Below, in pieces: positions 20,450-30,405 of a stretch of 39,379 bases of DNA (its first letter is position 1; each line of letters begins with the position of its first letter). The notes under the pieces were generated by a model. That model made no database searches, was not told the DNA's origin, and saw nothing but the letters and a program-made list of their open reading frames with translations. The DNA lies in UHGV virus genome UHGV-0141615; one strand, 5' to 3'. Source of the DNA: a virus. The translations under genes were made by a program, and so were the position numbers.

Positions 20450-20463
20450 GTGTCACCTCCTGT

Positions 20464-20778
20464 TTAAATGTTGATGCCGCCACCGGAGCTACGGGCTACA
20501 CTCAAGGACTTCTTACCACCAGCACGGGCTTTCTTACGTCCGCTTTCGGTCTGTGCTTCGTCCTCAGTGGAAACCTCTTTCTCAGGTACGTCAACAATCT
20601 GTGCAGCAGGAGTTGCGGCAGCTTGTGGAACTTCCACTACTTGTGCTTCCCCAGCACCACCTGCCAGCGCACCAGCAACCTGTTTAACCGGACGAGCCAC
20701 TTCCTTGGTAACTTTCTTCACGGCTTTCGTAACTGGCTTGGTGACTTTCTTAACGGCCTTCTTAATTTTCTTACCCAT
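20464..20778 (-). CDS. 7.3: gp7.3, tail/host-range protein, 104 aa, lysine-rich
   Basis: MGKKIKKAVKKVTKPV...ARSSGGGINI is T7 gp7.3-like (99 aa in T7). Confidence 0.85.
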   Translation of the reverse strand: MGKKIKKAVKKVTKPVTKAVKKVTKEVARPVKQVAGALAGGAGEAQVVEVPQAAATPAAQIVDVPEKEVSTEDEAQTESGRKKARAGGKKSLSVARSSGGGINI

Positions 20779-20781
20779 AAC

Positions 20782-21186
20782 TTATACCTCCTTAAAGTAT
20801 ACACGCATTGTCTCGCCCTCATGCTTACAGCGAGACACCCAATCGCAATCGTGGAGTTCTGCAAGGTACTTAAAGCGTTTCGCTAGGAATCGCTGTAAAC
20901 CCTTAGAGTATGCCTCAGGATTAATGACAACGGACGTTACATCCAGAATGTCTCCTTTGTGGTGAATGTCACAGCTTACGCACCACGCGAAGTACGCTAC
21001 ATGTTTTCCGGTAGAGTCCAGAATGTACTCTTCACGGCAACCAGACATGTCCATAACTTCGTCAACGTAGAGGCTGTAACCTATGAAGTGTCCTTCGAAT
21101 CCTTTAGGCAACCCAAGGTGTTCCACAGTCCACCGGATTGCACGGAAGCGACTATTGGCTTCCACACATATGAACTCGGACATCAC
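20782..21186 (-). CDS. 7: gp7 host-range protein, 134 aa
   Basis: Near-identical to T7 gp7. Confidence 0.85.
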   Translation of the reverse strand: MMSEFICVEANSRFRAIRWTVEHLGLPKGFEGHFIGYSLYVDEVMDMSGCREEYILDSTGKHVAYFAWCVSCDIHHKGDILDVTSVVINPEAYSKGLQRFLAKRFKYLAELHDCDWVSRCKHEGETMRVYFKEV

Positions 21187-21449
21187 TTCTTACCTCCAAA
21201 TGCGGACTTACGGATTGAAGATTTCATACGAGCGGAGCCATTACTACTGGCTTTAGACTTCGCTACGGAATCATCGCGTTCGACCTTGAGGTCTTTGCGT
21301 CCAGACACTTCGGTGCCTTCGGTATCCGTCTCATCAGAAGACCCACCGAACTCTACACCCGACACTTCTTGGGTCAGAGGCGCTGGCTCAACGGCTCGAA
21401 TCTGATTGGTATCCATCTTCGGAACTTTAACTTTCGGTGAGAAACACAT
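21183..21449 (-). CDS. 6.7: gp6.7, a small virion protein ejected into the host, 88 aa
   Basis: MCFSPKVKVPKMDTNQIRAVEPAP... has the same length as T7 gp6.7. SD GGAGG supports the internal ATG at 21449, not the track start. Confidence 0.8.
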   Translation of the reverse strand: MCFSPKVKVPKMDTNQIRAVEPAPLTQEVSGVEFGGSSDETDTEGTEVSGRKDLKVERDDSVAKSKASSNGSARMKSSIRKSAFGGKK

Positions 21450-21453
21450 AAGG

Positions 21454-21708
21454 TCAATCCTCCCCATCATCTCTTAGTTGTTCCTTACGTAACTCAATCT
21501 CGTCAATGACGTTAGAGGCATACTGTAGGCCCTGAATGAACCCCAAGATGTGGGCTTCACTACAACCGTTAGCACGCATAAGTCCTATATGACCAGACGC
21601 TTCGAGGTACGCATAGTTGAATCGAACCTGTAGATACTCAGCGGTTGCACGAGGTACATCTGGAATATCGTTAGGGTTCTTAAGTAATTGGTTAATAGGC
21701 GTTAACAT
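21454..21708 (-). CDS. 6.5: gp6.5, 84 aa
   Basis: T7 gp6.5-like. It is the first gene after phi6.5. Confidence 0.85.
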
Positions 21709-21762
21709 GATGAAGATTCCTCTTATAGTTAAATCTTAAAGTAATAATCATAAAGGCCCCTA

Positions 21763-21785
21763 TCTCCCTATAGTGAGTCGTATTA
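21763..21785 (-). promoter_or_regulatory. T7 RNAP promoter phi6.5
   Basis: Exact consensus reverse complement. +1 at 21768. Confidence 0.9.
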
Positions 21786-21788
21786 ATT

Positions 21789-28201: not shown

Positions 28202-28390
28202 TGGTTTACCTCCTGAGGGTTTCCGTTTTGAAGCCCTCTCTTTAGTGTCTTCATTACCAGCAGTCCACTTCTCGCATACGTAGCAGAACGTGTGTCCGTC
28301 AGAGAACAGCGAGTTCCCATCACTACTCCCGCAGTTGTCACAAGGAATGTGGTAAAGAAATACACTATCGGAATCGTGCGAATTGTCCAT
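26690..28390 (-). CDS. 4A: Primase-helicase 4A, 566 aa, with a zinc-binding domain, a TOPRIM primase domain and a hexameric DnaB-like helicase
   Basis: [27 protein letters not shown]... has the same length as T7 gp4A. SD GGAGGGAATTGCATG. Confidence 0.95.
27279..27301 (-). promoter_or_regulatory. T7 RNAP promoter phi4c inside gene 4 (CAATCCGACTCACTAAAGAGAGA)
   Basis: Reverse complement read directly. +1 at 27284. Confidence 0.8.
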
Positions 28391-28729
28391 GCAATTCCCT
28401 CCTAGTTCTATAAATCCACGCAACGACTTCCAATAGATCTCTACTACGAAAGTTATGCTGTTTACCATCAGCGGTTACAGTGCCTCTCCACATCTCCCTT
28501 TCCTTGCTCCAACTCAGTCCCTTTAGTCCTGAGGTATTGCTCTTTGGAGTCTTCATGTTCCATGAGTTTTCTTTGGGAGAGCCAGACGGAGATTGTCTAA
28601 GTCGTCGTTGAGTGGATTGCCGTCAATGTGGTCTATATAATAACCTTTTGGTATAGGCCCATTGGCTGCCTCCCACACTTGGATATGCCTCCTCGGAGCC
28701 TTATAGAATTGTTTATAAGACTTGCGCAT
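28365..28729 (-). pseudogene. 3.8: Gene 3.8 (HNH endonuclease homologue) split by a -1 frameshift in an A-run. The N-terminal 58-aa ORF (28553-28729) and the C-terminal 63-aa ORF (28365-28556) are in different frames.
   Basis: Frame 1 reads MRKSYKQFYKAPRRHIQVWEAANGPIPKGYYIDHIDGNPLNDDLDNLRLALPKKTHGT*. Frame 2 reads [63 protein letters not shown]. Together they align with the single 121-aa T7 gp3.8. The break is at CTCCCAAAGAAAAC. Confidence 0.75.
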
Positions 28730-28746
28730 TATTTGACCTCAAATGC

Positions 28747-28771
28747 GAACAAAGGGAAACCGTTGTGGTCT
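28747..28771 (-). promoter_or_regulatory. RNase III hairpin R3.8 (GGGAGACCACAACGGTTTCCC) in the phi3.8 leader
   Basis: Short perfect hairpin right after +1 of phi3.8, as in T7. Confidence 0.5.
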
Positions 28772-28791
28772 CCCTTTAGTGAGTTCAATTA
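28769..28791 (-). promoter_or_regulatory. T7 RNAP promoter phi3.8 (ATTAATTGAACTCACTAAAGGGAGA), a weak class II variant
   Basis: Reverse complement read directly. +1 at 28774. Confidence 0.85.
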
Positions 28792-28792
28792 A

Positions 28793-29248
28793 TTATCCAC
28801 GGTCAGAAGTGACCAGTTCGTTCTTCTCCCACCAACGCTTAAGGTCGAACGATGGGCAAGCCTTCGGCGCGACCTCATGATGCGCGCGAAGCACAGCGCC
28901 TTCGTACTTAGCCAGTAGCGTGACAAGCAGTGAGCGGAGGGATTGCATTTGGGCTGGCGTAAAGTTAGCGTCGAACTTACCTTTATCGTCAATACCACCT
29001 ACAAGGCAGACACCAATAGAGTTGTGATTATAACCTTTAGCGTGAGAGCCTACAGCCATCTCATCTCGACCTTCCTCTACTGTGCCATCGCGCTTGATGA
29101 TAAAGTGATACCCCACATCGAGCCAACCTTGCTCTTTATGCCACTGGCGAATCTCACGGACACCTACATTCTGACTTGGCTTGGTAGCCGAGCAGTGAAC
29201 AAAGATTGCGTCAGTAGATTCACGTTGTTTAAACTGTACACGAGCCAT
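28793..29248 (-). CDS. 3.5: Lysozyme (N-acetylmuramoyl-L-alanine amidase), a T7 RNAP inhibitor, 151 aa
   Basis: MARVQFKQRESTDAIFVHCSATKPSQNVGVREIRQWH... is T7 gp3.5-like. Confidence 0.95.
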   Translation of the reverse strand: MARVQFKQRESTDAIFVHCSATKPSQNVGVREIRQWHKEQGWLDVGYHFIIKRDGTVEEGRDEMAVGSHAKGYNHNSIGVCLVGGIDDKGKFDANFTPAQMQSLRSLLVTLLAKYEGAVLRAHHEVAPKACPSFDLKRWWEKNELVTSDRG

Positions 29249-29703
29249 TATTTCTTTCCTCCCTTCGATTGTTTCAGCTTGTCAAATGGCACCTCCTTTT
29301 TGGGTTCTTTGAGCCATTCTACAGGAATTAATTTGTCAGCAAACAGAATACCGTGCTTCTCACACCATTCTCCATAACTGGTCGGAGACCCTTTGTATAG
29401 CTTGGTGCGCGAACTTGAGAACACAAGACGGATGTCCAGTTCAGGAAACTGTTCGCGAATCAGTAAGTGTTTCTTTCGGTCGTCACTCTCCCATAAACCT
29501 TTGGTTTCAATAAAGATTCCGTTAGGCAGCAGGAAGTCTGGAGTATACATATGGTTGCTCGCAGGGACAACGTAAGGGATTTTCCACAGTTCATAATCGA
29601 ACTTAATGCCCTTACCCTCTAGCTGCTTAGAGACCTTATCTTCTAGGCCGGAACGGAATGTCCCGACCTTTCGGATACCACGCGCAGCGTATGCGCCAGC
29701 CAC
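29248..29703 (-). CDS. 3: Endonuclease I, a Holliday junction resolvase, 151 aa
   Basis: T7 gp3-like. Its start abuts the gene 2.5 stop. Confidence 0.9.
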   Translation of the reverse strand: MAGAYAARGIRKVGTFRSGLEDKVSKQLEGKGIKFDYELWKIPYVVPASNHMYTPDFLLPNGIFIETKGLWESDDRKKHLLIREQFPELDIRLVFSSSRTKLYKGSPTSYGEWCEKHGILFADKLIPVEWLKEPKKEVPFDKLKQSKGGKK

Positions 29704-30405
29704 TTAGAAATCTCCGTCTGAGTCTTCTTCTTCGTAAGAGTCTCCGTCGTCTTCGTCCCAGCTTTCTTCGTCGCGTGGTTTGCTCGCTTTGGCAGAACCA
29801 GAGGCAACATAGCAGTTCTCTTCAACTTCGTCAGCCCAATCGTCTTCACCACCACCAAAGGTAGCCAGCTCAACCAACATGACAGACTCCAGCTGTAGCT
29901 TAACACTTGCGCCGACTGCCTGATTCCACTTGTACGGAACCAGAGAGTATTTGACTTTCAGCTTAGAGCCACCTCCGATAATCGGAACGTCTTCCATCTT
30001 CTTACCTTTGGAGTCAACCACAACCAGATTGATGTGCTTGGTCTCTTTGGTCTTCTTGTCCTGATAGGAAGCATATGATTTGAACTTAAAGGTAGTCGTG
30101 CCGTCGCCATTATCGAAGAACGGCATGTCTCCTTCATACGGTTTCAGTGGTTTCTTACCACGAGCTACAGCAGGCGGGTTCGCTTCGTATTCCTCAACGG
30201 CAGCAGCATAAGCCTCTTCGTGACACTTCACGATTTCATCGACCATACGCTGGCAGCGCGGGTCTTTGTTGGGAATAGTCAGGTCAACTTTGTAGACACC
30301 GCGAGGGTTACCAAAGCCACGCTCTTCGTTACCGTAGTCCGGCTTAGCGATGTAAGCGTAAGGTTCAGCAGTACCCAGCGCAGAGGTGAAAATCTTCTTA
30401 GCCAT
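29704..30405 (-). CDS. 2.5: ssDNA-binding protein, 233 aa, with an acidic C-terminal tail ending ...DGDF
   Basis: T7 gp2.5-like throughout. Confidence 0.95.
   Translation of the reverse strand: MAKKIFTSALGTAEPYAYIAKPDYGNEERGFGNPRGVYKVDLTIPNKDPRCQRMVDEIVKCHEEAYAAAVEEYEANPPAVARGKKPLKPYEGDMPFFDNGDGTTTFKFKSYASYQDKKTKETKHINLVVVDSKGKKMEDVPIIGGGSKLKVKYSLVPYKWNQAVGASVKLQLESVMLVELATFGGGEDDWADEVEENCYVASGSAKASKPRDEESWDEDDGDSYEEEDSDGDF

Follow-up and report, generated by a model that had tools for sequence, protein, structure and literature searches.

Probable empty alleles at three nuclease-gene sites in a T7-like phage genome

Introduction

When a phage lacks genes that are present in a well-studied relative, have these been deleted, or were they never acquired? 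The question is raised by the UHGV virus genome UHGV-0141615 (39,379 nucleotides (nt); below called the window, i.e. the whole stretch of DNA that was analysed), from which genes 2.8, 5.3 and 7.7 of bacteriophage T7 are absent. The window is a complete T7-like (Teseptimavirus) genome presented in reverse-complement orientation, and every gene discussed here lies on its minus strand. Comparison using megablast and blastn gave ~93% nucleotide identity to T7 (V01146 / NC_001604), with which it is collinear, genes 3.5, 3.8 and 4 being 98-100% identical. The best overall match is to Escherichia phage AV103 (OR352934.1), at 93.7% nucleotide identity. T7 differs in carrying genes 2.8, 5.3, 7.7 and 4.7, together with an intact gene 3.8.

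We conclude, with a probability that we put at about 0.8, that three intergenic sites occupied in T7 by free-standing nuclease genes have the uninvaded ('empty') allele in the window. Absence of 2.8, 5.3 and 7.7 is the common state among these phages, and is probably the ancestral one. T7-group phages are already known to be polymorphic for the presence or absence of free-standing nuclease genes, and the polymorphism is represented in deposited genomes; variable small-nuclease content is a recognised feature of the group, and at least one deposited genome, that of AV103, has the same three empty sites. T7 is the textbook reference and is atypical in this respect, so that it would be wrong to equate 'missing relative to T7' with 'deleted'.

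The three junctions

Gene 2.5 (29704-30405) is followed without any gap by gene 3 (29248-29703), which encodes endonuclease I and has a GTG start. At the empty 2.5/3 site (29675-29734) the stop codon TAA of gene 2.5 (29704-29706) directly precedes the GTG (29701-29703), so that the junction reads TTCTAA immediately followed by GTGGCTGGC. A GGAG ribosome-binding site lies within the end of gene 2.5, and the signal GGAG...TAAGTG that serves gene 3 in the window is the one that serves gene 2.8 in T7. Between gene 5 (23479-25635) and gene 5.5 (23163-23459) there is a 19-nt spacer (23460-23478) of sequence ttctataggagaaattatt, running from the gene 5 stop to the gene 5.5 ATG (i.e. CACTAA ttctataggagaaattatt ATG). 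Gene 7.3 (20464-20778) and gene 8 (18839-20449) are separated by the 14-nt spacer acaggaggtgacac (20450-20463) that holds the ribosome-binding site of gene 8 itself (i.e. TTTAA acaggaggtgacac ATG).

The corresponding gaps in T7 are 400, 383 and 405 nt. A whole-genome alignment to T7, suggested in a preliminary description of the window made from its sequence, was performed using blastn against V01146, and it breaks exactly at the three sites named there. The breaks are at 29700/29679 of the window, corresponding to 9860/10278 of T7 (2.5/3), at 23478/23476, corresponding to 16468/16834 (5/5.5), and at 20455/20449, corresponding to 19843/20240 (7.3/8). The sequence missing relative to T7 amounts to 400 + 364 + 391 = 1,155 nt, in agreement with the ~1.2 kb that had been estimated, yet in total length the window falls short of T7 by only 558 nt, being longer than T7 in other regions. 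Each coordinate given in that description for the three absences and for the tight juxtaposition of the flanking genes was borne out by the table of open reading frames (ORFs) and by the base-level junctions.

Divergent copies of the missing genes were sought elsewhere in the window by tblastn with every T7 protein, and gp2.8, gp5.3 and gp7.7 turned out to have no homologue there. Gene 3.8 gave the sole signals for these three proteins, in the form of weak paralogous matches (E 0.02-0.04). No Pfam domain, of nucleases or otherwise, is present in the eight largest antisense ORFs of the window or in one small unassigned ORF on its coding strand.

The nuclease families

Three of the T7 proteins concerned, gp2.8, gp3.8 and gp7.7, belong to the HNH_3 family (PF13392), scoring 26.1, 56.0 and 49.8 bits against a Pfam cutoff of 24.8, and each matches HNH families of PHROG. 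T7 gp5.3 is a PD-(D/E)XK protein, matching PDDEXK_5 (PF11645) with 42.1 bits versus a cutoff of 26.1 (E 1.1e-10); it has no HNH match in Pfam, and its PHROG family has unknown function. The preliminary description had taken 5.3, 7.7 and 3.8 to be HNH genes and 2.8 to be some other ORF, which is correct for 3.8 and 7.7 and incorrect for 5.3 and 2.8.

It had also regarded the missing genes as dispensable, and published viable deletions of T7 support this. Genes 3.8, 5.3, 7.7 and 4.3-4.7 have been removed by seamless deletion, and T7 mutants with a disrupted 5.3 became dominant on serial passage. Gene 3.8 is missing from many of the phage records of laboratory-evolved T7. A 2025 preprint treats 2.8, 3.8 and 7.7 as the three HNH homing endonucleases of T7; phage lacking all three is viable, and it makes smaller plaques and is outcompeted by the wild type only in the presence of the GAPS4 defence system, which the T7 HNH proteins are reported to blunt.

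Distribution of the empty and filled sites

The occurrence of the junctions was surveyed using 60-nt queries centred on each, requiring a coverage of at least 80%; a match to one half of such a query is too short to pass the E-value limit. The contiguous empty 2.5/3 junction was found in 68 phage records and the 5/5.5 junction in 463, including 334 Klebsiella phages and six named Przondovirus. The empty 7.3/8 junction is contiguous in 49 records, nine of them matching at 100% over the 60 nt.

Gene content at the three sites was compared in a sample of 34 IMG/VR loci anchored on the primase/helicase (individual loci are given L numbers), plus AV103. The empty 2.5/3 site is contiguous in every one of the 14 close IMG/VR relatives (T7 excluded), and gene 2.8 is present at this site in none of 34 non-T7 genomes, where the gaps range from -4 to +17 nt with one of 76 nt. 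A 5.3 homologue lies between genes 5 and 5.5 in one of 28 relatives, and an HNH gene occupies the 7.7 site in four of 30. Thus the two HNH_3 genes 2.8 and 7.7 are patchily present at fixed intergenic sites among close relatives, and an intact empty allele exists for each. T7 is the outlier, and the window represents the usual state among its wild relatives.

Homologues of gp5.3 were found in only 97 records, of which 57 match T7 gp5.3 at 95% identity or above, and among the matches listed all of these are T7. Close homologues of gp2.8 are nearly all from T7 strains, with the addition of Erwinia phage FE44. The occupants of a given site are also variable. HNH alleles of 99%, 70-71% and 47% identity are found at the 7.7 site in different phages, and at least four unrelated genes are found in the 5/5.5 gap, depending on the phage: 5.3, a 101-amino acid (aa) HNH-like ORF, an ORF of 75-76 aa and one of 58 aa. 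We note that the 101-aa ORF is found in locus L017, and that the 75-76-aa ORF, of unknown function, is found in L004 and L032.

The set of three empty junctions in AV103 is identical to that of the window, with gaps of 0, 19 and 14 nt. Among the wild Teseptimaviruses phiA1122 (a Yersinia phage), 13a, CICC 80001, 64795_ec1, C5, N30 and EG1, gene 2.8 is absent from all, 5.3 and 7.7 are missing from most, and the junctions are those of the window. Individual phages depart from it; phiA1122 retains 7.7 (99%) and an intact 3.8, 64795_ec1 retains a 5.3 homologue (78%), and both C5 and HZ2R8 have an HNH gene of 70-71% identity at the 7.7 site.

Haplotypes of the flanking sequences

If the genes had been freshly deleted from a T7-like ancestor, T7-type flanks would have been left behind, and the flanks of the window are of the empty type. 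Sharp differences from T7 are found in its gene 3 allele, at the 5′ ends of genes 5 and 8, and in gene 5.5. Gene 3 has 74-77% nucleotide and 86% amino acid identity to T7, compared with 97-100% amino acid identity to every close relative that lacks 2.8, and it is precisely at the boundary between genes 3 and 3.5 that 99% identity to T7 is regained. On the other side of the site, the final 150 nt of gene 2.5 were compared without gaps, which gave no usable information, since the register is displaced by an indel in the acidic tail.

The last 15 nt of gene 5 (23482-23496) have the variant GCCGTATGTCAC associated with the empty site, where the 5.3 carriers T7 and L012 have GCGATTTGCCA instead. 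The T7-type sequence is present in both of the 5.3 carriers and in none of 14 other loci. The first 60 nt of gene 8 (20390-20449) have the empty-site haplotype, as defined by eight synonymous positions (nt 12, 15, 21, 24, 27, 33, 45 and 57 of the gene) that split 12 empty from five filled loci perfectly; Fisher's test gives p = 1.6e-4 for each site, for loci that are not phylogenetically independent.

This haplotype does not continue into the gene. From about nt 87, the window has the haplotype of T7 and the filled loci (nt 87-150; 20300-20363), and differs in this from all 11 of the other empty loci at no fewer than eight positions. The sequence therefore places a recombination breakpoint between nt 60 and 87 of gene 8 (20390-20363 of the window), less than 90 nt from the 7.7 site.

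A trace of insertion is seen in two loci where the 7.7 site is filled. L006 and L029 keep caggaggtgacacATGG, i.e. the ribosome-binding site and ATG of gene 8 in the empty allele, which now start the HNH gene, and this is the footprint of an insertion.

For gene 2.8 there is an indication of movement between genera. In phage FE44 (genus Berlinvirus; L037, 1501-1935) gene 2.8 is 82.9% identical to that of T7 at the nucleotide level, while genes 2.5, 3 and 3.5 are only 65-68% identical, and FE44 and T7 agree exactly over the opening 27 nt of gene 3. The greater similarity of 2.8 than of its flanks between these phages indicates horizontal mobility, and is direct evidence of transfer of the 2.8 cassette from one genus to another, as a horizontal gain. 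An element more similar than its flanks was found for 2.8 only.

Gene 5.5 (H-NS binding; 23163-23459) has 57-59% nucleotide and 50% amino acid identity to T7. In the relatives there are two allele classes of this gene, window-type and T7-type, that assort independently of 5.3. The diverged gene 5.5 was considered as a haplotype linked to 5.3 and was rejected; many phages without 5.3 have the T7-type gene 5.5, and L012 combines 5.3 with the window type.

Origin of the empty sites

We suggest that 2.8 and 7.7 (HNH_3) and 5.3 (PD-(D/E)XK) behave as selfish cassettes of the homing-endonuclease type. Each lies between two essential genes, captures the ribosome-binding site of the downstream gene, carries along a short tract of flanking sequence and is spread patchily among relatives, and we infer that gp2.8, gp5.3 and gp7.7 cut the empty sites and home into them. 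The window would then simply be a genome whose three sites are uninvaded.

There are published parallels. In T4-like and ICP1 phages, free-standing homing endonuclease genes (seg, mob; PMC2988022, PMC2790892, PMC10448857) are also small nuclease genes placed between essential genes, patchy in distribution and adjoined by sharp breaks in identity and co-converted flanks. PMC10448857 places nuclease genes beside essential genes at boundaries of genetic exchange, and the T7-group sites fit this picture. The window would provide a clean natural example of nuclease cassettes that mark recombination boundaries beside the essential genes 3, 5 and 8.

Several points weigh against this explanation. The T4 enzymes have been shown experimentally to cleave and to home, whereas the literature searched gives no cleavage or homing activity for gp2.8, gp5.3 or gp7.7, and for this reason the label of homing endonuclease rests here on domains and distribution. 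Nor does that literature report site-specific cutting of an empty allele or super-Mendelian inheritance in crosses for the HNH_3 genes 2.8, 3.8 and 7.7, and a paper on a Yersinia podovirus (PMC5923468) does not deal with these genes specifically. The loci compared are related by descent, so that the Fisher p-values overstate their independence. The gp5.5 allele, in which the window and T7 differ by ~50%, is unlinked to 5.3, so not every divergent flank is tied to a nuclease gene. Lastly, a genome that never carried 7.7 and one that lost it through recombination with an empty allele would account equally well for the switch within gene 8.

The last of these leads to the explanation that best survives beside that of uninvaded sites. 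The lineage may once have had at least one of the three genes, most plausibly 7.7, and lost it through homologous recombination with an empty-site phage, i.e. the precise-loss step in the life cycle of a homing endonuclease. Gene 8 would then be of the empty type over nt 1-60 and of the filled type from about nt 87, as observed and unlike the other empty loci, and the 98-100% identity to T7 of gene 3.8 and its flanks points to recent exchange with T7-type phages. But the same mosaic would arise if an empty-site phage had imported a T7-like gene 8 with a crossover ending at the site. Moreover no comparable switch is present at the 2.8 site, where all of gene 3 is of the empty type. We consider such a history rather unlikely, while allowing that at the 7.7 site the empty state may have been restored in this way.

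Three independent, precise deletions of 2.8, 5.3 and 7.7 from a T7-like ancestor, as the word 'deletions' in the preliminary description would imply, are considerably less probable. The genes are dispensable and readily lost in the laboratory, and the breaks coincide with gene boundaries. But gene 3, nt 12-57 of gene 8 and the last 15 nt of gene 5 all lack the T7-type allele and have the haplotypes of other empty-site phages, and the junctions are widespread empty-site alleles, identical to those of dozens to hundreds of genomes, including other genera. The flank haplotypes largely refute this explanation. Artefacts of assembly or sequencing in which the regions were collapsed or dropped have a negligible probability; nothing specific argues for them beyond a one-nucleotide homopolymer difference in gene 3.8 that could be a sequencing error, and all three junctions keep their reading frames, stops, ribosome-binding sites and starts and recur base for base in many independently sequenced genomes.

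Gene 3.8

The uninvaded sites do not leave the window free of such genes; on the basis of its sequence it holds putative genes of the homing-endonuclease type of its own, i.e. a frameshifted gene 3.8 and an Endonuclease VII-type cassette. The preliminary description had implied that 3.8 (HNH_3; 28365-28729) was retained. It is indeed present, with ~99% nucleotide identity to T7, and it is frameshifted by a one-nucleotide deletion (A4 to A3). The zero frame ends after 58 aa (ORF 28553-28729), with the frameshift after codon 52-53, and the remainder is open in the -1 frame. Together with the close identity of its flanks to T7, this suggests that gene 3.8 was acquired recently and has then decayed.

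The frameshift could be a sequencing error, since the allele was found nowhere else; there are no exact matches in IMG/VR, it was not found in the phage records, and the best-ranked phage records (T7 strains, 98.8%) have an intact reading frame. The deletion creates the heptamer C_CCA_AAG in the zero frame at Pro52-Lys53 (28571-28577), a sequence that is highly shift-prone in E. coli (review PMC5009743), and slippage by -1 at this point would give back the unaltered T7 gp3.8 sequence ALPK|ENSW. Folding of the surrounding 101 nt revealed no significant stimulatory downstream RNA structure at the heptamer (z = -0.96; 35 of 200 shuffles fold as well or better). It is conceivable, if doubtful, that a minority of ribosomes slip by -1 to make full-length gp3.8 at a low level, giving a 'throttled' homing endonuclease or anti-defence protein through compensatory frameshifting.

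With 2.8 and 7.7 lacking a homologue and 3.8 frameshifted, the window has no intact T7-type HNH_3 gene. A phage in this state might be more sensitive to GAPS4.

AV103 differs from the window in being without gene 3.8 altogether (the gap from 3.5 to 4A is 65 nt), and its gene 5.5 allele is of the T7 type.

The Endonuclease VII-type gene and gene 5

In place of T7 gene 4.7, the window has an ORF (25635-26072; PF02945) that is a putative free-standing homing endonuclease gene of the Endonuclease VII type (DHHRN motif). It encodes 145 aa starting from MKICSKCG, the mechanical ORF extending to 26153 (172 aa), and its stop overlaps the ATG of gene 5. The matches are to Pfam PF02945 (E 8e-21) and phrog_2633 (E 9.5e-43). 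In an alignment to residues 9-69 of T4 endonuclease VII (GKCKIC, IDHDH, KVRGLLCWHCN) the zinc cysteines (CxxC, CxxCN) and the D, H, H, R and N residues are conserved. The DHHRN / Endonuclease VII-motif family of homing endonucleases, which includes F-CphI, was defined in PMC6083498, and like its members the window ORF has a C-terminal Endonuclease VII catalytic motif and an N-terminal region resembling a zinc ribbon. F-CphI is a cyanophage enzyme, however, and the similarity is at the level of the motif only. This ORF, of 145-172 aa, and a 173-aa tail-fibre assembly gene contradict the earlier statement that no ORF of 60 aa or longer is unassigned apart from antisense ones.

Close homologues of the ORF are found in a few phages of several genera, at different genome positions. 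AV103 has the Endonuclease VII-type gene replacing 4.7 (97.6% aa identity) together with a linked 5′ block of gene 5 (99% aa); the wild Teseptimaviruses of the phiA1122 group differ from the window in that none has the gene. The block comprises the first ~215 nt of gene 5 (25421-25635), which are divergent from T7 (66-76%), and it was seen only in the window, AV103 and L034. It accompanies the Endonuclease VII gene or a remnant of it in all three carriers and is absent from all 15 non-carriers. The cassette replaces gene 4.7 along with the first ~215 nt of gene 5.

We note some further features of gene 5, the DNA polymerase. A 14-aa in-frame insertion with clustered substitutions lies just before motif B (~24046-24087); outside this the protein is almost identical to that of T7, and the 42 nt of added gene length is found also in L008, L011 and L032. 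In L002 (AV103), L013, L034 and L036 the gene spans 2,712-2,852 nt compared with ~2,112 nt. The AV103 polymerase is annotated as two pieces around a 131-aa ORF; in contrast to the window, an ORF-bearing, intron-like insert splits gene 5 in that phage. The long form of gene 5 in these four genomes looks like an arrangement of intron plus endonuclease.

Other differences from T7

Gene 1.2 (dGTPase inhibitor; 33037-33306) has 41% amino acid identity to T7, and is another sharply diverged early-gene allele. At ~26590-26755 (3′ end of gene 4A, gene 4.2, phi4.3 promoter region) the identity to T7 falls to 69-78%, and there is no adjacent nuclease gene. The tail fibre gp17 (3696-5966; 579 aa) has only its N-terminal ~290 aa in common with T7, the C-terminus being different, and its gene is followed by that of the 173-aa tail-fibre assembly protein (phrog_136), absent from T7. 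The C-terminus of gp17 and the assembly gene are probably a swapped host-range module. Lastly, the leader that runs from the phi10 promoter to gene 10 (17630-17785) includes ~150 nt that are absent from T7 and AV103, and the same sequence is found in L008 and L009 at 96-99% identity.

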